Notes: generated by a model not told the origin, from the letters alone. Numbered from the stretch's first letter, positions 12,971-45,188 are shown. The stretch: 64,000 nucleotides of DNA from Candidatus Heimdallarchaeum endolithica (GCA_021513715.1 CP084167.1:2688001-2752000), one strand, 5' to 3'. Made by a program: numbers and translations.

Positions 12971-13215
12971 GTGGATAATCCTGATTCTTCAATTATAATT
13001 GATAAGATTAAAGAAGAAATAAATAATTACGAATCTTCGAGAGCTAGAGGAAAAAAACTTGTTTTTGAGAAATCTACTTCTGAGCTTTTAAATGGTTTAG
13101 AACAGTTTCTAGATGATTTTTTGACAAATATTCTAAAACAGAAGAAGTAGAAGAAATTGACAAATTTGTTGAACACCTCTATTCTTCATTAGGGTGGAAA
13201 AGAAATGATTACTAA
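12971..13215 (+). CDS. Small helical protein overlapping the Rad50-like start (possible Mre11 C-terminal Rad50-binding remnant); 1-nt frameshift
   Basis: GTG start after GGTGA. Adding one T to the T6 run at 13117-13122 extends ...LEQFLDDFF into DKYSKTEEVEEIDKFVEHLYSSLGWKRNDY*, which overlaps ATG 13205. Confidence 0.5.
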
Positions 13216-15031
13216 TGTAAGTGTAAAAAATTGGAAAAAATTTGATCAGCAAAAGGAATGGTCTTTTGATAAAGGAATCCAGCTTATTTATGGGCCAAAT
13301 ACAAGTGGAAAATCTTCACTTCTTGAAGCTATTTATTTTGCCTTTTTCGGAGTAGATGAGAAAGTTGATGGAAATCCAACTTATAATTCAAATGAGGCTG
13401 CTATCGTGACAGTAGATTTCATTTCAAATACTGGTGAAAAATATAGAATAATCAGAAGTTATAAAAAAATAAAAAGAAAAGAAGAATCTTTTACACTTTA
13501 CAAATTGGTAGATGGAAATGAAGAATTTTTCTCTGATAATCCTCAAGATGCGATAAAAATATATGGAAACTTTGAAGATATCTTTACACATATAATTTTC
13601 CTGAAAGAGGGCGAAATATATCGAGCTCTATCAAGAATGAAAAGCAATTTAGATGAAGAATTAGCATATTTGTTAAACTTGCAACGATTTGATGTTCTTC
13701 GTGATAAATTAAGAGAAACAAGACTTAAAGTTATTAAAAAAGAAAAAGAAAATGTAAAAAAAGACCCGACTTTTCTATCTGAAAAAGAAATAAATGAACT
13801 TAACGATAAATTGAATGATTTAAATGAAGTTAAAAAGAAGCTAGAAGAAGAAAAATCGAAGTTTATAGACAATAGGCAAACAGCGCAGAAAAAATATTCA
13901 TTAACTAAAAAACTGAGAGATCTTGATTCTCAAAAACAAAAATATGGTGAAACAATAAAGACTATTAGAAACAAGTATGAAAATAAAGAATCTTTAATTG
14001 AGTTTTTGGATAATGAGATTGAATCATTAGAAAATAAATATAGACAGCTAGAACTAGAGTATAGTAAACTAAGTAGTGAAAAGGCAGAAAAAGAAGGAGA
14101 AAAGAGAAGACTAAATAAGCTTATTATTGAAATCAAGTCTTTTAAGTCCTCTGGAACTACTACATGTCCTACTTGTTATCAAAAAGTTGACCCCTTAATT
14201 CTTCAAGAAGCTATGGAAAGTTTTAGCAAGAAAGTTACAAAGTTAGAAAATGCTTTGTCCCAACTTAATTATTCTATTGATACGGTTAATGAAGAAAAAA
14301 GAAATATCTCTCAAAAAATAAAGGAAATTAAAGAAGACTTATTTGAGCTCAAAAATGCAAAAGCAAGAATAAGTGATGTCCAAGAAGAAATGAATGAAAT
14401 AAGTGAAAATCTTAACTCTCTCCCCCATACTGAGGATATTCAATATTATTCAAAACAAATACAAGAACTAGAACAAAAAATAAGTGAAACTAATGTAGAA
14501 ATAGGAACAATAGAGAAAAAATTAAGTTCAAGTAAGCAAGAAGGGGTTTTTATTGATGAACTAGAGTTTCAGGAAAAATTCATAGAACTTGTTGAAAATA
14601 AAATAGCAGAGTATAAAGATGAGTTGTTAGAAAGAAAATTGGATGAAATTAAAAGTGTGATAAAAGAAAAATGGTCAGAAATATGGGATAAAGAAATATG
14701 GTCTATTGAATTTGACGAAAATTTAATTCCTACAATTAGCTTTAAGTTTAAAGGAACAACTATTCAACAGAATTTACGCAGTTTTTCAGCAAGCGAAAAA
14801 ATACTCCTGAGTGTCATTTTACGAGCTGCACTAATTGATAAATTCTTAAGCGTGAAAACGATGATTCTTGATGATCCCTCAATCTTTCTTGATCAAGAGA
14901 GTGTTAAAATTGCTGCTAGATTCTACCGTGAACTAATAGATAAAAAAAGTGTTGAACAGATAATTATGACTACATTTGATGAATCATTCAAAGAGTTGTT
15001 AAAACCCGAAAAAGTGATAAATCTTGAATGA
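13205..15031 (+). CDS. Short Rad50/SbcC-like ATPase with zinc hook
   Basis: GPNTSGKSS Walker A, coiled coils with central CPTC, variant signature FSASEK, Walker B ILDDP. Confidence 0.88.
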   Translation: MITNVSVKNWKKFDQQKEWSFDKGIQLIYGPNTSGKSSLLEAIYFAFFGVDEKVDGNPTYNSNEAAIVTVDFISNTGEKYRIIRSYKKIKRKEESFTLYKLVDGNEEFFSDNPQDAIKIYGNFEDIFTHIIFLKEGEIYRALSRMKSNLDEELAYLLNLQRFDVLRDKLRETRLKVIKKEKENVKKDPTFLSEKEINELNDKLNDLNEVKKKLEEEKSKFIDNRQTAQKKYSLTKKLRDLDSQKQKYGETIKTIRNKYENKESLIEFLDNEIESLENKYRQLELEYSKLSSEKAEKEGEKRRLNKLIIEIKSFKSSGTTTCPTCYQKVDPLILQEAMESFSKKVTKLENALSQLNYSIDTVNEEKRNISQKIKEIKEDLFELKNAKARISDVQEEMNEISENLNSLPHTEDIQYYSKQIQELEQKISETNVEIGTIEKKLSSSKQEGVFIDELEFQEKFIELVENKIAEYKDELLERKLDEIKSVIKEKWSEIWDKEIWSIEFDENLIPTISFKFKGTTIQQNLRSFSASEKILLSVILRAALIDKFLSVKTMILDDPSIFLDQESVKIAARFYRELIDKKSVEQIIMTTFDESFKELLKPEKVINLE

Positions 15032-16627
15032 AACTAAATTTTTGTTTGTTTTTGATACTTCTTTTTTTTGTCTCTCTTAAATGTTAATCGCCATCAATTG
15101 ATACAAGATATCAAAGAAGTATTTGACTTTGTTCCAAACATTGAATATATTGCTCCAAAAATAATTCTAAAAGAGCTTTCGGGAAAATATAAAGACAAGT
15201 GTCCTTTTCTAGAGCAACATATTCAATTTACAGATGTAAAAATTACAGAAGAAGAGATAAAAGAACTTAAATCATTAAATTACTCTTTAGCGAATCATGC
15301 GTTTGAGAGAGATGAAAAGGGTGATTACCTCATAATTAAATCAGCACAAAAGCATAACAACTCAGAAGTAGTCACATTCATTGTAAGTAATGATGAAGGT
15401 ATTCATTTGTTTCTCAATCAAGCTATTCCAGAAGAGAAAATAAAGCCAATCTGGGTTGCAAGATTTTTATCTTTTTTAGCTAAACAATCTCCAACTAAAC
15501 CTCAAAAACAAAGGTTTATTCGAGCTTCTGAAATGCTAGAAGAGTATATTGAAACTTATCGTATAAAGGCTAAGCGAGGAGAAACACCTTTTTATGATAT
15601 GGAAAAGATACTCATGTCAGCTAAATTTTTACCAGCTGAAGAGCAAGTTGTTCAGTTGCAAGAATCTCTAGAGAATCAAATAATCACAGGAGAAAAAAAT
15701 AAAACTCTTCCTTCATTTATTAATCAAATAGGTTCAAAACTACATCAAATTTTTACATATATTGATTTAGGTGAAACAAATGTTATCGAAGCTCAACTCG
15801 AGTCTGTAGAAAATATAATCAAAAATCTAAATTTCGAGCAACAAGAGACAATTTACAAAATTATTAGTTTTTATATGATTGCTATTCTAAATCGATTAGC
15901 TTCATTATATGACCAAAATGGAGCTTTTTCTGGTATTGTTTCCGCATTGGAAAGAGCAAAATACTATTTGAAATATGTAGAAGAATTTGAGGATAAGAGT
16001 CAACTCTACGCAATTTTAAGTTGGATACATTTATTAAATAATTCAGTTGATTTGTCTCAATATTACTTCTCAAAAGTAACAGATAAGAACTTTGAACTAG
16101 CAAGAAAGTTAATTGCATTATTAGAGCTTTATGGCACTCCACTAGCAAAAATTAATTTAGAATTGTATGAATTACTTCCATCTGAAATTTGGAAGGATCT
16201 CAATGAAACGCTTGCTATATGCCCAAATAAGTTATTACGAGATAAAATAGCTCATATAGTTAATACCTTTGAAATAAAGCCCTCTTTTGTTTTCGATGCA
16301 AGACATTTTAGTCTGAAAAATGTAAGTGTGAAAGAAAACTATTTACTTTCTTTTCTAAAAGAGCAGTTTAGAATACTAAATATAAGAAAAAAAGAGAGTT
16401 CAATAGTGATTGAGTGTTATAACAGTAAAATTGGTCAAATTGAACTCCGTTTACCAGTTATGACAAAAATGCTTAAAGCATCACATGGTGATTTAATTAG
16501 TTTTCAAGGTGGAATAGTAGCAAAAATCAACAAACCTGGCCCAGGAAAAAAACATTCTGCAACAATATATTTCAGTAAATTAGAAGAAAAGGATCATAGT
16601 GTCTCAAAGGATAGTAAGTTAATTTAA
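15024..16627 (+). CDS. PIN-like domain + helical repeat protein; 1-nt frameshift near 5' end
   Basis: TTG 15024 gives MNETKFLFVFDTSFF. One extra T in the T8 run (15062-15069) joins it to the 15068 ORF. Motifs FDTS, GDY.II, VSNDEG are shared with the C-terminus of 29875..31644. Confidence 0.7.
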
Positions 16628-16742: not shown

Positions 16743-17093
16743 GTGGACAATATTGTAACTGGGCTGTATGTTGGTAAAAAAGACCCCGTTTTTACTGAAA
16801 CAAGTTCCTTTCAACCTAAAAATGTTGTAATCATTAGAGTAAAAATAGTTGATTCTAGTGGAAATGCTGTTGAAGGTGCATCAGTAACCATAACAATTAC
16901 TAACCCTAATGGAGATATAGTGACTCTAACCTCAACAACTGACAATCAAGGAATAGCAGAGTTTTCTTATAGGTTAAATCCAAAAACTCCACTAGGAATT
17001 TACACTATTAATGTGACAGATGTGAGTCTAACTGGGTATACTTATGATCCAAATGCTAATGTAGTTTCAACACTTGATTTTAATGTAAATTAA
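16743..17093 (+). CDS. Stand-alone Ig-like/MG2-type beta-sandwich domain, probably a remnant of a larger surface protein
   Basis: VKIVDSSGNAVEGASVTITITNPNG...TTD.QG.A pattern; no signal peptide. Confidence 0.6.
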   Translation: MDNIVTGLYVGKKDPVFTETSSFQPKNVVIIRVKIVDSSGNAVEGASVTITITNPNGDIVTLTSTTDNQGIAEFSYRLNPKTPLGIYTINVTDVSLTGYTYDPNANVVSTLDFNVN

Positions 17094-17812
17094 AATATAC
17101 AACCCTTTATTTTTTTCTTTCTTTTTAAAATGATAGAGCAAAATATTTAGATTACAAAATTAAAGAAATTTTATGGTTTCAATTACATTTTATGGTGCAA
17201 TCAATGAAATAGGAGGAAATAAAATACTTCTAGAAGGAGAAGAAACTAGAGTTTTTTTGGATTTTGGCTTGTGTTTTAATCGATATGGTAATTATTTTTC
17301 TCCTTATATTACTCCGCGTCAAGGACTAAAATTAAAGGATTTTATTGAGTTGAGCCTTTTACCTGATCTCGAGGGTTTATATTGACAAGATTTTGAACAG
17401 CGCTTTCGAGAGAGTGCTAAAGAGCCATTGTTCGATGGAATCGTTCTCTCACATTCACACATTGATCATGCAGGATTTATTCCATTTATACGTTCTGATA
17501 TACCTTTCTATGCTTCTGAAGGTTCATTGGCTATATTGAAGGCAATGGAACAAACTAGTTACGGATTCTACGAATTTTTAGAACTTAAAGAGAAATTCAA
17601 AATAAGAGAAAGTAAAAGAGAGAAAGGTAAATATATACGAGATAGAGATTCAAGTATTCGAAGAGAAATAGTTTCTTTAAAATCAGATTTTAAAATAGGT
17701 GAGTTTAGTTTTCATTTCTTCCCCATAGACCATTCAATTGTTGGAGCAACGGCTTATGTTATTGAAACTCAAGAAGGCTCAATAGTTTATACTGGAGATA
17801 TACGTTTTCATG

Positions 17813-19653
17813 ATTTACTTTTTGTGAAGTTTGTCGAACTTAGTCTTTCAAGAAAAAAACAAAGATAGATAATTGTTAGTTTCTTGAGAACTTAATCCTA
17901 ACATACAATGAAAGAAGAAGGATTAAGACAGACGTCATACACGAATCGGGGGAATCATAAAGAAGAAAAGAACTTTTTCTTTCTTTTCTTCACTCCACGA
18001 GAGACAAAAAAGAAAAAACTAAACCCTTGAATATAAGAGTGAATAATTCTTTTTGTCTACTGGGACTGCAACCAATGGCTGAGTCCTCGGCAAACAGTAT
18101 AATGCGTAAGACTAAACTTTTGACCAGTAAAGTAATCAGTAATAGTTGTAACACGGGGACGAAAAAGATGACTAAGGAATTTACGAGCAATATTTCTAGC
18201 TCCTGTTAAATCAGAGTGGTAAGTATAGTTACAAAAGGGACAGTGTATTAATCCTCTGACGGGACGAGAAACTTCTTTTCCACAACGGGAACAATGAGAA
18301 GATGTTCCTCTTTCGTCTATTATAAGAATACGATGAGGAGCAAAACCTCTTAATATCAATGCTCGACGGAGAAGAGAAAGAACTAAAGAAAAATTCCACT
18401 GGTGAAGTTTTCTACGAAAATAACGAGTACTTTTACCTTTCCCTTTTTCTTTTCCTTTTCTAACATTTTTGGGGTAACCTACGACGACGAAAAGGTCATA
18501 CATTTGAGCATAGGTCCCTATCGTCCGCACAACGTCGTTTATAAATTGGTGAATATAGGACTGTTTAACGTTTCTATATCTCCGACGAAGATATCCAAGA
18601 AAACGATAAATTTGGTGTTTTTTACCCGACTGGTCATTTAAAGCCGCTTTCCTCTGAAGACGGGAAAACTTGAGTTTATATCTGTGATTGATTCTATTCC
18701 ACTGTTTGGTATACCAGAATTTTATCTCTTTGCTTGTTAACTTCTTTTTGGGAGTTAGTAACACTCCTACAGCAGGAATGTTTATCCCTAGATCTATCCC
18801 CAGCACAGCTGGGGGAAGAGAAGAAGAATTATTAACTGAATAAGAAAAAGAAGAAGGAGGAAGAACTTCTAATTGAAAATACACCCACCACTCACTTGTA
18901 GAACGTTTATATCTTAATTCCAGGCTTTTCACTTGTCCTTTTTTCAATTCTTTTTGATGGAAAGTGCTCATCTCTAAAGGTAACCACAATCGTTGATGAT
19001 ACCTTGTTTTTCTTTTCCACGTGTCTAATGAGTCTCTTATTCCTACCCACCAACGAGAAATAGAGTTGTTTTTCTCTTTTGGTAAATTAGTAAGAATAAA
19101 CCTATTCTTATTGATTAGTTGTTTTCGGGGTCTCTTTTTTGGAGGACGAGTGGCTTCAGGTCTATATCCTTGCTCGTACAGTTGTACTGCTATATCTCTA
19201 CACTCTTGAAACTCATCATGAGAACAGTAAGGGAACATCTTTTTAAGGTCATGAGGAACAGTCTCTCTTCGCTCTTCTACTTTTTTTAGCCTTGATGTTG
19301 TCAATGTTAGTTCATCTAGTTTTCCTCTATGTACTCTTATTTCTCCTTTCTTTGTTTTCATACACAGTCTTCTTCTGTTGTGATGTATAATTTTTACATA
19401 TTTTCTATTATCCTTGTGTCTCTCCCTGTTATTCTCCTTAATCTTTCCTTTTTTCTCCTCGTCAAAACTTCATTTTTTATTTTTACTTTCAAAGTTTTGA
19501 CTATCTTCTCCATCTTTTTTCCTCTTCTTTTCCTTTTTTTCTTTTTCTTCTCTTCATTTATTTCTACTATTTTTTCTTATAAAAAGTCTCTTTTTTTTCT
19601 TTTTCATCCATACTCTCTATCCTAATGTTCGCAAAATTACGCAAAAAGTAAAT
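17813..19653 (-). mobile_element. Non-autonomous TnpB-only element with ~30 bp terminal inverted repeats
   Basis: CATG at both junctions (17809-17812, 19654-19657). The IRs ATTTACTTTTTGtgaagtttgtCGAACtTAG and ATTTACTTTTTGcgtaattttgCGAACatTAG share a perfect first 12 bp. Removal restores RFHGRKSD. Confidence 0.9.
18057..19513 (-). CDS. tnpB: TnpB with rearranged RuvC-II glutamate; 1-nt frameshift in the N-terminal part
   Basis: LGIDLG, VVVG(YP), IDERGTSSHCSRCG...CPFC, DLTGARNI. The upstream frame MEKIVKTLKVKI... (ATG 19513) joins the 19361 ORF if one base is added at 19401-19404. Confidence 0.88.
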
Positions 19654-20585
19654 CATGGAAGAAAATCTGACCAAAGTTGGGACTTTGTTGAAAAAGCGAG
19701 TACCTATGATCCAATTCTGATGATTACAGAAGGTACAAGAATTCAGGAACAGACAAATGTAACAGAACAAAAACTAGAAGAAAGTTTGAAGGATACAATT
19801 AAAAACATCAGTGAGTTAGCAGTTGCTTCTTTTCCCGTAAGAGATTTTGATAGAATGCAGTCTTTCATTAATGCTGGAAAGGAAAATGAGAGAGAACTCG
19901 TAATAAGTACACGACAAGCTTTTACTTTGGATATTTTGAATAGAGAAAAAATAGAAAATGCTCCTAAACTAAATGAAGTTAAAGTTTTTCTTCCAAATAA
20001 AGGCTGGGGAATATATGATAATTCTAATTATCCTATTGAAATTCAGATGCAGGATTATACTACTTGGGAAAGAAAAATAATGGATAAGTCATCTACAATT
20101 ACAGCTGCTGAAATAAGAGAAAAACAAAGAAATTATGTGTTAAGGGTAGAACCTACAGAATTAAAATATTTACTTGATATTAAACCAAAAACAGGTTCAA
20201 GATACATTCGTTCTTTAACAGAGCCTGTGGATGAAGAGATGGTGATACAACAACAGAAAATGGATAATTGGTTAAAGTTCTTCGATCTTTATCCATATGA
20301 ACAACTGCATTGCTCTGGGCATACCTCAGGAAAAGAACTAGTTCAAATGATAAAGACTATTAGTCCTAAAAAAATCATTCCAATACATACAGAGAAAGCG
20401 AGAGATTTTATTAAAACATTTGAAAATGTAATTATTGTAGACGAAGGTGTCAAAATAACGATAAAATAGACTTTATAGTTCTATTTGGGTTAAATTGCTT
20501 TTCTTTACTTTATTAAAATACTATTAAAAGGTCTCCTATTATATTACTACAAAAAAGTAATAAATGAGAAATAATTTGTTCTTAT

Positions 20586-23182: not shown

Positions 23183-23746
23183 GCAATTTTACACTACATT
23201 TCTTTAAAATTTTTTGGGTATCGTAAAATTTGTTGTAAGAATAATTGTATTGAAGAGTTAGTATAGTCTTTTTATAATAACCTGTTTTGCTGCTTAGGTT
23301 ATCAAGAGATTAAAGATCTATTTTCTCCTTTGAAAGACAGTGTATGAAAAAAGTACGTAAAAAAGTAAATAATAATGAATTAACGCCTTCAAAACCAAAG
23401 CATCTAGTTTTCTCTGTTTTATCTTTATTGATTTTATTCAGTAAGTTGACAGAAACTTTTCACTGAAATTTTGAATAGCAATAATAGCTTAAATAGATTA
23501 ATAGGGGAAAAATAGGTTATTCAACTAGTGACAATAGTTTCTTTTTTAAAATATTTTAAATTTTTTAAGTTATTTAATTTTGATATTTATTCCAAAATTT
23601 TAAAACCTTCAGTACGTTTTCAAATGACTTTTTTACATTTTATACTTAGTTTTTCCTATTATTTTAATTATTTTTCTATTCTAAATTAAAATCTTATTTT
23701 CTATAAAAAATTATTTTCTATATTTAATTTCTTTAAGAGTTTGAAA

Positions 23747-24560
23747 ATGCATCTAAATACACAACAAAGTAGACTATCAATAATAAAAAACAAAATATCT
23801 GACTCTTCTAAAGCTTTAGGGATAATATACATTATTATTGGTTTATCTGGATTTATTTCTTATTTATTTTTATATGCAGGTCAGCACTTTTTGTTAAATT
23901 TTTAAATCTTGATTATCTATTTGTTTCTCTTTTTTTAGTTTCTATATTTCCTATGAGTTGAAATTTTACTTAATTTCTTCAGGACTCTCCCCAACCAATC
24001 AACAAACTTAGCGAAAGTTGTGAAGACTGGCTTAAGAGAACATGAAAGACACAGTCTTAATTAAGTTCTCTAAGGGGTTCATCTCCTGATCCCGGGCACT
24101 CATAACTCCCAAAGGGAAAACCAGGTGTCGTAGGAATGAAACCTACGTCTTTAAGCATTTAGCTCAAGACACTAGATAAATGAGAATTAAATATATAAAG
24201 ATAGCTGAAAAGTTGTGACACTCCCCAATATTTTGTATTTTTTATTTAAGCAAATGTGTTTCAGGTTGTTATTGGTCTAATAACTCCACAAACTAAAAAT
24301 TTAGTTTTTACGTAAAAAAGTATCTTATGAATTAAGTAGTGATACAAAGAAGATAGGTAATACTTTTGGAATGTCTACTATGCAAAACAACTTTGTGCAA
24401 CCAACTAATTTGCAAACTGGAATCTTGATCTTTCGATTAAAGAAAAAGTTGTCTATGCGGCTAATGAGACAAAGATTGCTTTTTAGAAAAATCCATAGGC
24501 TGCAAATCCTAAATCAATGGTTTTAGAAGTAAGAGATAAAAAAATTGACCAGATAGATAA
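23747..24560 (+). pseudogene. Decayed paralog of the 44082..45188 membrane/zinc-ribbon protein, with its centre replaced by foreign DNA
   Basis: 23747-23954 reads MHLNTQQSRLSIIKNKISDSSKALGII.... 24325-24555 matches ...VYADNETKIAF...NPKSMVLEVRDKKIDQ. Both parts carry stops and frameshifts. Confidence 0.85.
23978..24175 (-). ncRNA. Candidate structured ncRNA (three-way junction + pseudoknot)
   Basis: GC-richer, ORF-free segment with several perfect stems. A TATA box (CTTTATATAT, minus strand 24200-24191) lies just upstream of the first stem. Confidence 0.5.
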
Positions 24561-29874: not shown

Positions 29875-31644
29875 ATGAAAAACTCTCCGAAAACTAAAAA
29901 TGAATTTATACGTAATTGTGCTGAATTATGGTATAAAAAAAGAGATATTAAAGAGTTAATGACACTTTTTCGCAGCACTTTTGGAAAAAACAATCCCTTC
30001 TTTCTTCTACAGGTAGGTTCGAGTGTATTTAAAAAATATGGGTATGAAATTTGGGTTATATTTTTGTCAGATTTGTTTAATTTCAACAAAAGATTCAGGA
30101 AAGTTATTCAAGGAAGGATAGATAGAACTTTTTTCAATTTAGTTACAGGGTGGAAAGGGAGTGGAAAAAAACATATTATAACATCATCTAAAGAACTTGA
30201 TGAAAAGATCTCTTTTCTTGTTGAAAAAACATCATTACAAAAACCAAATTTTGATAGGATTTATTTTTTCTTAACAGAACAGATAAAAGACCGGGCAATT
30301 TTACCAGAAGAATGGGTGAGAATAAAAAATACATTAATTTATATTCCAGAGAGCGTAGAAACTTATTATTACCTTAAAACAGTTATGTATAAAACATTAG
30401 GTTGTAAGAACTACAAAAAAATAAATATTCAAACAAATATAGGTAGATTCATCAATTATAGAAAACTTAGGCGGAGATTATTTATCTTTTTATTACAAAA
30501 TAGAGATTATAAATTGCAAAAATATTTTCTCAAATTACCTCTTTTTTTAAGAAATAATGAAAAGGAAAAAGTCATTTTAGCAATTTCAATATTAAGTTAT
30601 TTATTTTCTAAAAATTATAAGAATAATGATATAATAACTAAGTATCTTCTTGAAAATGCAAAGATAGGAGCTAAAAAATTAAAAAATCAACATTTCCTAT
30701 GCCAGATAGTTAGAGATCTTTATATTGAAGAATTTTACATTTATATGAAAAACAAGGAATTTACTGAAGCTGTTAAGATTCTTAACTATATAGAAAAAAA
30801 AGAATTAACAAAAGGAAATAAAAAATCTAAAAATAGAATTAACATTTTTCTAGTTGAAGGATATTTGGAACTTACAATTCAATTTTTAAAGCTTGGTATA
30901 TATGGACGGGCACAAAGAACATACGAAATGGCAAGTAATATTTTTAAAAATATCACAAAAAATAAAATTTCCAATCTTAAGGATCTTGAACAATTATTTG
31001 TCTCTTTAAACCAGCAATTTCAAAAAATCGAAACTGAAATGATATTTATTTTAGACACTTCTTTTTTGTGTAGTGTCTTAGACTTTGTTCATCAAAGAAA
31101 AGACGAATTCGAAAAAATTTTTGAAGTAATAAATTCCTATGAGCAGATTGATTATAAAATACCAACTTATGTTTGGGAAGAAATTCCTGTTCGATATAAG
31201 TTTTGGTCTCCTTTACTTCCAAATACAACATCTTTTACTGACTATGAGATACCAGATGAAAGAATAAATGATTTGAAGTTCTTAAATGAAATAAGGCGAA
31301 AAAAGTTTTTTACTGATGACGAAATTTTTGATTATAAAATTATACAAACAGCCCTAGATTATAAAACGGATAGAATTACTTCAATAATTGTTTCTAATGA
31401 TGAAGGAATACATTCCTTTGTTAGTAAGGCTTTACAAGAACCCAATGTGAGATCAATATGGTCTCATACATTTCTCTTATTTCTAGCTAGAAATGGAAAA
31501 AATGAAAAAATAATAAAAATATTAGAAAAAGTTGCTGACGGTGTCGAGAAACTAATTAATGAATATCGAACTAAAGAGAAAAGAAAAAAACTATTGATAC
31601 AACCATTCGACAAAACTTTGATCTCTGTTAAATTAGAAAAATAG
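29875..31644 (+). CDS. Helical/TPR-like protein with C-terminal PIN-like domain
   Basis: FILDTSFL...EE...DYKII...VSNDEGIH...IW..TFLLFLA, paralogous to the N-terminus of 15024..16627. Confidence 0.72.
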   Translation: MKNSPKTKNEFIRNCAELWYKKRDIKELMTLFRSTFGKNNPFFLLQVGSSVFKKYGYEIWVIFLSDLFNFNKRFRKVIQGRIDRTFFNLVTGWKGSGKKHIITSSKELDEKISFLVEKTSLQKPNFDRIYFFLTEQIKDRAILPEEWVRIKNTLIYIPESVETYYYLKTVMYKTLGCKNYKKINIQTNIGRFINYRKLRRRLFIFLLQNRDYKLQKYFLKLPLFLRNNEKEKVILAISILSYLFSKNYKNNDIITKYLLENAKIGAKKLKNQHFLCQIVRDLYIEEFYIYMKNKEFTEAVKILNYIEKKELTKGNKKSKNRINIFLVEGYLELTIQFLKLGIYGRAQRTYEMASNIFKNITKNKISNLKDLEQLFVSLNQQFQKIETEMIFILDTSFLCSVLDFVHQRKDEFEKIFEVINSYEQIDYKIPTYVWEEIPVRYKFWSPLLPNTTSFTDYEIPDERINDLKFLNEIRRKKFFTDDEIFDYKIIQTALDYKTDRITSIIVSNDEGIHSFVSKALQEPNVRSIWSHTFLLFLARNGKNEKIIKILEKVADGVEKLINEYRTKEKRKKLLIQPFDKTLISVKLEK

Positions 31645-44081: not shown

Positions 44082-45188
44082 TTATTGATTTACAAAGGAT
44101 TTTCCACAATTAGAACAAAATCTAGCATCTATATCATTTTGAAAACCACAATTAGGACAATATTTGAATAATGGACGGTTAGGTATAGCATTTCTATAAG
44201 TATTTCTTTTAGCATTTAGAGGATTAACCTGGTCAATTTTTTTATCCCTTACCTCTAAAACCATTGATTTAGGATTTCCGGAAGCTGGATTTTTCTTAAA
44301 AGCAATCTTTGTCTCATTATCCGCATAGACAACTTCTTCTGACATAGATGGGTTTAAGTTTCCAGTTCGCAAATTAGTTGGATGAACAAAACTGTTTTGC
44401 ATACCAGCAGTTCCACCAGTAAAACCTATCTTCTTTGCATCATTACTTAAAGCATAAAAACCACCAACAAAGAAAATATAGCCCAAAAGAGCAGAAATAC
44501 TGGCAATTAAAAACCAAATCAAGAATGAGGTATCGAAATAACCAGTTAAAAGACCTTCAGAAATAGCACTTGTCATTTTAATTGTTCCAAAAACGCTAGA
44601 GAAAACAGAAACAATAATAATGTATCGAGAATATAAAAGCCAATTAGTAAACTGGTCATAGAAAAGATTCATTTGTTGCAATTGATCAAAGGTAGAAGAA
44701 AGAACTTTAAAACCTAAAGTAAGAAAAATAAAAGGAAGAAGAATTAATATTAGTAAAATAAAGCTAAAAGACGGTAAAAAGAAAAGCAGAAGAAATAGAA
44801 AAGGAGAAATAAAAGCTATAATCATCTCAGAAAACATACTCACTTTAATGTATTTGCTTACATCTTTAGCAGAATTAGTATGAAAATTGTAGTAAAAAGA
44901 AAGCTCTGTAGAAAGATCATTAAAACCACCTGCAAGCTTGAAAAAAAAGATATAGCGAAAGATAACAAGAACAATAGAAAAAATAGAAACTAAAAAAAGA
45001 GAAACAAGAAAATAATCAAAATTTAAAAATTTAATAAAAAGAGAAAAACCTGTATATAAAAACAAATAAGAAATAAATTCCGATAAGGCAATAATAATAT
45101 AAATTATCCCTAAAGCTTTAGAAGAGCTAGCTATTTTGTTTTTTATTATCGATAGTCTGCTTTGAGCTGTGTTTTGATGCATTTTCAA
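44082..45188 (-). CDS. Multi-pass membrane protein with C-terminal double zinc ribbon
   Basis: Paralog of 24646 and 25524; ends KYCPNCG..ND.DA.FCSNCG. Confidence 0.85.
   Translation of the reverse strand: MKMHQNTAQSRLSIIKNKIASSSKALGIIYIIIALSEFISYLFLYTGFSLFIKFLNFDYFLVSLFLVSIFSIVLVIFRYIFFFKLAGGFNDLSTELSFYYNFHTNSAKDVSKYIKVSMFSEMIIAFISPFLFLLLFFLPSFSFILLILILLPFIFLTLGFKVLSSTFDQLQQMNLFYDQFTNWLLYSRYIIIVSVFSSVFGTIKMTSAISEGLLTGYFDTSFLIWFLIASISALLGYIFFVGGFYALSNDAKKIGFTGGTAGMQNSFVHPTNLRTGNLNPSMSEEVVYADNETKIAFKKNPASGNPKSMVLEVRDKKIDQVNPLNAKRNTYRNAIPNRPLFKYCPNCGFQNDIDARFCSNCGKSFVNQ

Follow-up and report, generated by a model that had tools for sequence, protein, structure and literature searches.

A Rad50-like ATPase and PIN-TPR-OB cassette as a candidate conflict module of Asgard archaea

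A three-gene cassette in Candidatus Heimdallarchaeum endolithica

We analyzed a 64-kb stretch of the genome of Candidatus Heimdallarchaeum endolithica, which is assembled as a single 3.33-Mb contig with a GC content of about 30% (the whole stretch, G000:C1:2688001-2752000, is hereafter called the window). The closest database relatives of the proteins encoded in the window are named Candidatus Heimdallarchaeaceae. At positions 12971-16627 (+), the window holds a cassette of three co-directional genes that encode a small protein, a Rad50-like zinc-hook ATPase and a protein combining PIN, TPR-like and OB-fold parts (PIN-TPR-OB). An original prediction, made from the DNA sequence alone, had listed three genes at these positions. 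All three are indeed present, but the first and the third, which had been listed as if intact (a repaired operon was named only among the proposed assays), are both frameshifted in this genome.

The small gene (12971-13215, +) encodes a protein of about 81 aa in intact relatives, as delimited by tblastn and by DNA alignment with a genome of the same genus (G015). In the frame of these relatives, the gene ends with the TAA codon at 13213-13215 and overlaps the start of the ATPase gene by 11 nt. The ATPase gene (13205-15031, +) is intact and encodes 608 aa arranged as head, antiparallel coiled coil, zinc hook and head. The PIN-TPR-OB gene (15024-16627, +), which was read from three-frame translations and the alignment with G015, starts with the TTG at 15024, overlaps the stop of the ATPase gene by 8 nt and encodes 534 aa in intact relatives.

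A short Rad50-like ATPase with altered catalytic loops

Three Pfam families (AAA_29, AAA_23 and AAA_27) match the ATPase above their cut-offs, and SMC_N falls below its own (35 bits for a cut-off of 40 bits). When the profile of the ATPase family was searched against the PDB, the best matches were the heads of archaeal Rad50 from M. jannaschii and P. furiosus (E-values of 1e-47 to 1e-39), with Rad50 of T. maritima and of eukaryotes ranking lower. The profile also matched structures of the Rad50 zinc hook (1l8d and 6zff), P. furiosus hooks among them. The 60 top-ranked PDB sequence matches did not include any structure of LmuB, the ATPase of the Lamassu defense systems.

The family does not reach the curated cut-offs of any of the related models. 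The Rad50 equivalog models yielded 64-140 bits for cut-offs of 700-1087 bits. The top NCBIfam match of the window ATPase is the model of the ASRPs (NF045487, the ClsN/Sph family), which it matches from position 6 to 573 of 593 with 110.8 bits; other clades of the family scored 82-87 bits, the cut-off is 300 bits, and no open reading frame (ORF) of the entire genome passes it. For other members of the family, the Rad50 models outscore the ASRP model. The PADLOC model of LmuB (PDLC03859) matched three clades of the family end to end with 105-120 bits. This match is not diagnostic, since the same model also matches the mre11-linked Rad50 of the host (71 bits). Finally, the PADLOC models of AriA, PtuA and GajA weakly matched the N-terminus of the ATPase, within the P-loop region only.

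We aligned nine sequences of the family (22-83% identity) and judged the positions of the motifs by eye in this alignment rather than from an alignment with a solved Rad50. The Walker A motif, GPNTSGKSS (residues 30-38; 13292-13318, +), presents invariant G30, N32, G35, K36 and S38. The zinc hook, CPTC (residues 321-324; 14165-14176, +), is located at the apex of the coiled coil and belongs to an invariant CPxCxQ pattern (C321, P322, C324 and Q326). The S..EK residues of the signature, the Walker B Asp and the LD of the D-loop are invariant as well. In contrast to these motifs, two catalytic loops depart from the expected residues: the position of the Q-loop Gln is occupied by an invariant Glu (E135) in all nine sequences, and where the H-loop His would stand, the sequences read TSF, TSY or TTF, with Phe or Tyr in its place. 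Directly after the Walker B Asp, the Heimdall clades have a second Asp and another clade has Glu. The original prediction had described a 608-aa zinc-hook ATPase with the degenerate motifs KEGE, FSASEK and LDDP, and we recovered these features as FLKEGE, CPTC, FSASEK and MILDDP. The Q-loop Glu, the lack of an H-loop His and the Walker B pattern suggest that the ATPase binds ATP and would hydrolyze it weakly.

A PIN-TPR-OB protein with a conserved PIN tetrad

An alignment of 13 PIN-TPR-OB sequences (16-83% identity) revealed that D11, E51, D101 and D124 are invariant and constitute the classical D-E-D-D tetrad of PIN domains; V121, G126 and R185 are also invariant. The AlphaFold2 model of the protein (mean pLDDT, a per-residue confidence score, of 83) comprises three parts. 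The PIN nuclease domain spans approximately residues 1-160 of the intact protein (15024-15500, +), and the frameshift of the window copy falls at about codon 16, just past the first catalytic Asp. Using VIA-align, residues 3-160 of the model aligned with the P. furiosus PIN protein 1y82 with a Z-score of 10.9 (138 aligned residues, root mean square deviation of 3.5), followed by the PIN domain of Rrp44 (10.6), VapC15 (10.4) and the Aquifex HARP RNase P (10.3), with VapC21 and Nmd4 down to 9.3. Foldseek likewise returned HARP, PRORP, Nmd4 and Rrp44. With Pfam, neither P0001, an intact relative, nor the window protein presented a PIN match, and only a further relative, P0003, gave one, below the gathering score (PIN_4, 19.7 bits for 21.9 bits).

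The second part is a TPR-like alpha-solenoid (residues 225-414; 15695-16264, +) that matched TPR proteins such as TSK/BRU1, PlcR, LGN and gamma-SNAP with VIA-align Z-scores of 8-10. Because such scores are ordinary for helical repeats, this part can be assigned to a fold class only. The C-terminal part (residues 443-534; 16349-16624, +) was modeled alone (pLDDT of 87; pTM, the predicted template-modeling score, of 0.77), and nearly all of its top Foldseek and VIA matches are OB folds (best Z-score of 7.5, root mean square deviations of 2.6-3.2 over 76-82 residues). These include the anticodon-binding domains of AspRS and AsnRS, HIN200, RPA, Stn1, Teb1, SSB and the OB domain of TTC5. Based on the conserved tetrad and the modeled fold, the PIN effector looks catalytically competent in intact relatives. 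Its substrate may be RNA, and the OB fold and the DNA methylases found beside some cassettes (see below) would fit DNA equally well.

The window encodes a paralog of this PIN domain at a separate location. A 589-aa ORF (29875-31644, +) presents 34% identity to the cassette PIN domain over its C-terminal ~200 residues; it has no Pfam match and no Rad50-like neighbor. In another genome (G014), the genes of an AAA_5 ATPase and of a protein with an RQC domain come after that of a 729-aa relative of this ORF. We also considered look-alikes of the PIN-TPR-OB protein outside Asgard archaea. A first metagenome scan found none, and Thermoplasmatota proteins of ~630 aa retrieved from the ESM Atlas were set aside as candidates: the one locus retrieved (P0053, GC content of 55%) is without a Rad50-like neighbor.

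A small protein encoded directly before the ATPase

In each of the eight loci for which upstream DNA was available, the start of the ATPase gene is overlapped or abutted by an ORF of 74-89 aa. The encoded proteins share only 22-30% identity with one another, and searches of Pfam, NCBIfam, PADLOC and the ESM Atlas yielded no usable match. No antitoxin-type DNA-binding domain was detected with Pfam or PADLOC. Comparing the profile of the small protein to the Mre11 of the host with hhalign revealed no similarity (probability of 0.3%), and the idea that the small protein is a remnant of the C-terminus of Mre11 is therefore an argument from gene position.

Distribution and genomic neighborhood

The PIN protein and its profile served as queries against the genomes of 400 Asgard species. 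Full-length relatives were found in approximately 14 of these genomes (~3.5%), and in 12 of the 14 the PIN gene is directly preceded by a co-directional gene for an ATPase of the same family (610-623 aa), the two genes overlapping or being separated by a few bases. The order small gene, ATPase gene, PIN gene was observed in the window genome and in G015, G024, G013 and G012, all of its own family, as well as in G041-43 and G118-121, and indeed in every locus examined. The ATPase gene followed by a PIN-family gene was further found in five more distant genomes (G091, G082, G085, G081 and G018). Two exceptions were encountered: the PIN gene stands alone in G116, and an N6_N4 DNA methylase gene directly precedes it in G129. 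The original prediction had named two outcomes that would speak against it, namely a full mre11 gene upstream in orthologous loci and a PIN gene that is not conserved beside the ATPase gene. Neither was observed: the small gene followed by variable neighbors is what lies upstream, and the pairing of PIN and ATPase genes is retained in 12 of 14 genomes and in the five more distant ones.

The distribution of the cassette is uneven. Within the family of the window genome, it is present in one of 25 species of one genus and in three of three and five of six species of two other genera. The PIN-TPR-OB family is rare: among 1.84 billion proteins, only 54 cluster representatives match it, and all of those with a name are from Asgard archaea (Heimdallarchaeaceae, Hodarchaeales, Odinarchaeota, Asgardarchaeia and "Promethearchaeota").

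The flanking genes vary by lineage. N6_N4 DNA methylase genes adjoin the cassette in one genus (G118, G119 and G121). In the window, the neighbors are a DEAD-box helicase, MBL-fold proteins, a remnant of an MG2-domain protein and a TnpB element; as originally predicted, no Mre11, HerA or NurA gene adjoins the cassette there according to Pfam, and no metallophosphoesterase gene lies beside the cassette in its relatives either. Together, distribution and neighbors lean toward an accessory element of the type found in defense islands. A scan for sigma-70 promoters in the window (28 sites for 21 expected) and for intrinsic terminators (none) was uninformative for an archaeal genome.

Two further groups of related ATPases were observed. 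In a sister cassette (L180-L185; G232, G160, G182, G249 and G184), two conserved genes of ~250-305 aa precede the gene of a zinc-hook ATPase of 633-665 aa. The two upstream genes have no family match; comparing the 273-aa one to the PIN profile with hhalign returned a match of 20 residues only, over an IVTxDD strand (probability of 1.9%). The sister ATPase gene adjoins pAgo and an Mrr-like nuclease in G160, its end is overlapped in G232 by the gene of a 1758-aa S8 protease with CARDB repeats, and nothing follows it elsewhere. The second group is bacterial. A Poribacteria ATPase of ~625 aa presents 24% identity over 99% of the length of the window protein and was considered as a link to Lamassu. 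Such Rad50/ASRP-like ATPases are found in at least 80 Poribacteria species (L076-L155, 64-100% identity), and they provide no link to Lamassu because an aminotransferase gene lies upstream and there is no nuclease partner. A quick tree of 28 ATPase rows separated the sister clade with its two upstream genes, the Poribacteria clade and two PIN-linked groups. It left the order of these groups unresolved, with the host Rad50 and the SbcC rows on long branches, and was used for no claim.

Local decay of the cassette in the window genome

The small gene of the window starts with the GTG at 12971, and the small protein of G015 in the ESM Atlas begins at the equivalent GTG. The frame is lost at a run of six T (13117-13122), which corresponds to seven T in G015 based on DNA alignment, and tblastn returns two high-scoring segment pairs in different frames of the window. 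The frame of the PIN gene is lost at 15070 after a run of eight T, where a single G stands in place of the GG of G015 and other relatives. As a consequence of this frameshift, an ORF finder reports only 15068-16627, without the first strand of the PIN domain. The relatives of the PIN protein in other Heimdall metagenome-assembled genomes, P0001 (94% identity) and P0002 (83%), are intact with 534 aa and read FDTSFFWSLLN.

To distinguish sequencing error from decay, we searched the window by tblastn with all the ORFs of at least 150 aa encoded in 78 kb of syntenic DNA of G015. At least 22 of these G015 orthologs were recovered in the window in a single frame and at full length, and broken genes were found clustered at the locus of the cassette: the PIN gene, the gene directly downstream and the following MBL-fold gene. 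The cassette thus presents two frameshifts in 3.7 kb versus none in approximately 25 kb of other coding sequence. The gene directly downstream (16743-17093, +) is a 116-aa MG2-domain ORF corresponding to the C-terminal 117 residues of a G015 protein of 799 aa, whose intact form comprises Lamin-tail (LTD), Big_7 (Ig), Exo_endo_phos (EEP nuclease), fn3 and MG2 domains; a deletion of ~2 kb immediately after the cassette removed most of this gene. The MBL-fold gene, which encodes 483 aa in G015, is interrupted by a TnpB element (approximately 17809-19657) that separates two pieces (17173-17868 and 19654-20469, +), and it also presents an in-frame stop near 17386.

Because at least 22 neighboring orthologs are intact and both frameshifts fall within 3.7 kb, the lesions of the small gene and of the PIN gene are more likely to represent real inactivation than sequencing error, as judged from these sequence comparisons. 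It is possible, though in our estimation unlikely, that both frameshifts arose as errors of sequencing or assembly and that the cassette is functional in this genome. Both are indeed 1-bp deletions located at or beside T-runs (T6 for T7, and a G lost after T8), homopolymers are typical error sites of some long-read chemistries, and the genome was assembled as a single 3.3-Mb contig. Nevertheless, two errors in 3.7 kb with none in at least 22 other orthologs would be an odd coincidence, and the flanks have truly decayed as well through the deletion, the TnpB insertion and the in-frame stop. The loss of costly defense genes is a common pattern.

Elsewhere in the window, pieces of a 378-aa gene lie in two frames at 23741-24558 (+). 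Because an intact copy is found at 44085-45188 (-), these fragments represent a decayed duplicate.

Repair genes elsewhere in the genome

The original prediction called for a separate mre11-rad50 locus to be sought in the genome, and we identified one. At G000:C1:471493-476819, three genes in a row encode a HerA-like protein of 626 aa, a Metallophos/Mre11-type protein of 426 aa and a Rad50-like protein of 710 aa, in a locus opened by a 437-aa gene (G000:C1:470168-476819). A second repair locus (3112516-3115153) presents a herA-nurA pair beside a CTP synthase gene. The identities of these genes are based on Pfam domains and on Rad50 model scores below the cut-offs. The apparent repair genes are thus split over two loci, and the Rad50 of the host is unusually short. 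The presence of a separate herA-mre11-rad50 cluster indicates that the cassette is not the sole Rad50-type machine of the genome.

Comparison with known systems

Lamassu systems are derived from SbcCD: their ATPase LmuB is short (~600 aa) or long (~800 aa) with a variable CxxC hook, and the Walker B consensus of long LmuB is hhhhDD (PMC12663957). LmuC is encoded directly before LmuB, resembles the C-terminus of SbcD and is too diverse for sequence methods, while LmuA carries an N-terminal effector domain, the C-terminal domains of short LmuA being bundles of 5-6 helices (PMC12663957). The effectors named in the main text of that study (Cap4, Mrr, protease, Sir2, FMO, HNH, SMEK and lipase) do not include a PIN domain, and Lamassu was reported in only seven archaeal genomes, all Euryarchaeota or Thaumarchaeota and none Asgard (PMC12663957).

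The cassette shares much of this architecture. Its ATPase is ~600 aa long, derived from Rad50/SbcC with a shortened coiled coil, carries a CxxC zinc hook as some LmuB do, and has a non-canonical Walker B with a DD comparable to that of long LmuB. Moreover, a small protein is encoded directly before the ATPase, the third protein joins an N-terminal effector to a C-terminal part that is non-catalytic, the genome encodes a separate repair Rad50/SbcC, and the distribution is patchy. In contrast, the gene order is small gene, ATPase, effector rather than lmuA, lmuC, lmuB; the small protein has only ~80 aa; the C-terminal part of the effector consists of TPR and OB folds; and the ATPase is nearest to archaeal Rad50 in the PDB, whereas LmuB has been traced to bacterial SbcC (PMC12663957). 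The PADLOC models of LmuC did not match any of three versions of the small protein, nor did those of LmuA match P0001 and two other members of the PIN family. The Lamassu-like logic advanced in the original prediction therefore fits the architecture of the cassette but not its gene order, and it finds no support in similarity to LmuA or LmuC. We consider that the cassette would work in a Lamassu-like manner without filing it as a member, because the gene order, a detectable LmuA/LmuC similarity and the apparent bacterial ancestry are not shared.

Archaeal Mre11-Rad50 provides the best sequence matches for the heads and the hook of the ATPase, and it also presents a partner gene located before the ATPase gene with an overlapping end. 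The cassette differs in having no phosphoesterase partner, in its coiled coil of about half the usual length (608 aa in total versus 710 aa for the host Rad50 and 872-895 positions for the models), and in its Q-loop Glu and missing H-loop His. As for the ASRPs, they are ~600 aa long with a zinc hook and include sequences from Heimdallarchaeota (PMC9389158). The words "operon" and "neighbor" are absent from the text of that study, which thus reports no conserved nuclease partner (PMC9389158). The cassette ATPase resembles these archaea-specific proteins in its length, hook and end-to-end alignment to their hidden Markov model, but it scores only one third of the curated cut-off; ClsN and Sph are tied to chromosome or cell-shape functions. 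Finally, PARIS (AriA-AriB), Septu (PtuA-PtuB) and Gabija (GajA) also couple an ABC ATPase sensor to a nuclease effector, but their ATPases lack a long zinc-hook coiled coil and their effectors are Toprim or HNH nucleases rather than PIN domains. Our literature search found no paper on an archaeal cassette of a Rad50-like protein and a PIN protein, and the word "Lamassu" is absent from the text of the papers searched on Asgard defense and mobile elements.

A candidate sensor-adaptor-nuclease module

We lean, somewhat better than evenly, toward interpreting the cassette as an undescribed, Asgard-specific conflict or defense module, made of a sensor, an adaptor and a nuclease, that would derive from archaeal Rad50, follow a Lamassu-like logic and have decayed in the window genome. 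Under this interpretation, two copies of the 608-aa ATPase would pair by way of the zinc hook and the ATP-bound heads, and this slow-hydrolyzing dimer would sense DNA that is foreign or abnormal, for instance ends or intermediates of replication. The ~80-aa protein might be an adaptor bound to the heads or the coiled coil, and its gene occupies the operon position of the C-terminal Rad50-binding domain of Mre11/SbcD and of LmuC. The PIN-TPR-OB protein would be the effector, anchored by its TPR and OB parts on the sensor or on nucleic acid. The firing of the sensor would then release or activate the PIN nuclease, which would cut RNA or DNA and arrest the cell or the invader. We infer each of these elements, i.e., the three-protein complex, the ligand of the sensor, the substrate of the PIN domain and immunity as the outcome, and the sensing of DNA ends in particular is a presumed property of the ATPase.

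Several observations weigh against a defense module. No PADLOC model of a defense partner matched the small protein or the PIN protein, and the LmuB model that matched the ATPase also recognizes the Rad50 of the host. The near-constancy of the cassette in two genera would fit a lineage-specific housekeeping role as well. The immediate neighbors in the window genome and in G015 (DEAD-box helicase, MBL-fold protein and surface nuclease-like protein) are not defense genes, and the defense genes found beside other loci concern few cases, come without a statistical background and belong in part to the sister clade.

Alternatively, the cassette might encode an accessory complex that repairs or processes ends of the cell's own DNA, in which a FEN-like PIN domain with a single-stranded DNA-binding OB fold replaces Mre11 beside a shortened Rad50. 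The archaeal Rad50 matches of the ATPase (E-value of 1e-47), hook included, are consistent with this role, as are the position of the small gene where the C-terminus of Mre11 would be encoded, just before rad50, the near-constancy in two genera and the OB matches, most of which bind single- or double-stranded DNA (RPA, Stn1, HIN200, SSB and Pot1). We nonetheless hold such a repair function to be rather improbable. The genome already possesses a herA-mre11-rad50 cluster and a herA-nurA pair, the cassette is very patchy (~3.5% of Asgard species and one of 25 in one genus), and the loops needed for ATP-driven end processing by Rad50 are altered (Q-loop Gln to Glu, no H-loop His). In addition, the nearest PIN structures are RNases (VapC, Rrp44, HARP and Nmd4) rather than FEN1 or EXO1, and some lineages have restriction-modification and pAgo genes in the vicinity. 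The same nearest RNase structures would favor an RNA-surveillance or toxin-antitoxin-like module, with PIN-TPR-OB as a regulated RNase (VapC- or TTC5/SMG6-like) and the ATPase and small protein as its inhibitor or chaperone, with no sensing of DNA. The combination of TPR and OB parts does resemble TTC5/Strap in the Foldseek lists (4abn and 6t59, and 2xvs for the OB fold), and the small upstream gene could encode an antitoxin-like partner. This scenario appears very unlikely to us: for a mere inhibitor, a complete coiled coil of the Rad50 type with its invariant hook is an elaborate structure, the TTC5 matches are weak over the whole protein (TM-score of ~0.2) with both folds being generic, and the small protein yielded no antitoxin-type DNA-binding domain. 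It is also conceivable that the ATPase is a chromosome-organizing ASRP of the ClsN/Sph type and that the PIN protein is an unrelated or regulatory neighbor. NF045487 is indeed its top NCBIfam match, end to end with 110.8 bits, and ASRPs share its length of ~600 aa and its zinc hook and have Heimdallarchaeota members (PMC9389158). We regard this possibility as highly improbable given that the scores of 82-111 bits are far from the cut-off of 300 bits, that other family members score higher on the Rad50 models and that the distribution is patchy. Furthermore, the PIN gene is no incidental neighbor, since it overlaps the ATPase gene and accompanies it from one family to another.

Implications for Asgard immunity

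A broader evolutionary scenario can be proposed with considerable reservation. Asgard archaea might have turned their own Mre11-Rad50 into an immune sensor independently of bacteria, with a shorter coiled coil, blunted hydrolysis, Mre11 reduced to a Rad50-binding remnant of ~80 aa and exchangeable effectors (PIN-TPR-OB here, others in the sister clade). We find this scenario doubtful as it stands.

The window copy of the cassette is broken, and it is useful as a record of natural loss rather than as a construct. The family is small, so that its intact relatives (G015 and the P0001/P0006 versions) constitute a compact target for expression, reconstitution and structure determination. If the cassette is a defense system, it would represent an archaeal, Asgard-specific branch of SMC/Rad50-based immunity, which is otherwise almost entirely bacterial, with a PIN-TPR-OB effector used by no catalogued system. 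It would also be a second, and probably independent, case of a repair complex turned into an immune sensor. If the independent conversion in Asgard archaea is true, it would parallel the bacterial route from SbcCD to Lamassu in the closest prokaryotic relatives of eukaryotes and would bear on how Rad50-type complexes entered antiviral immunity.

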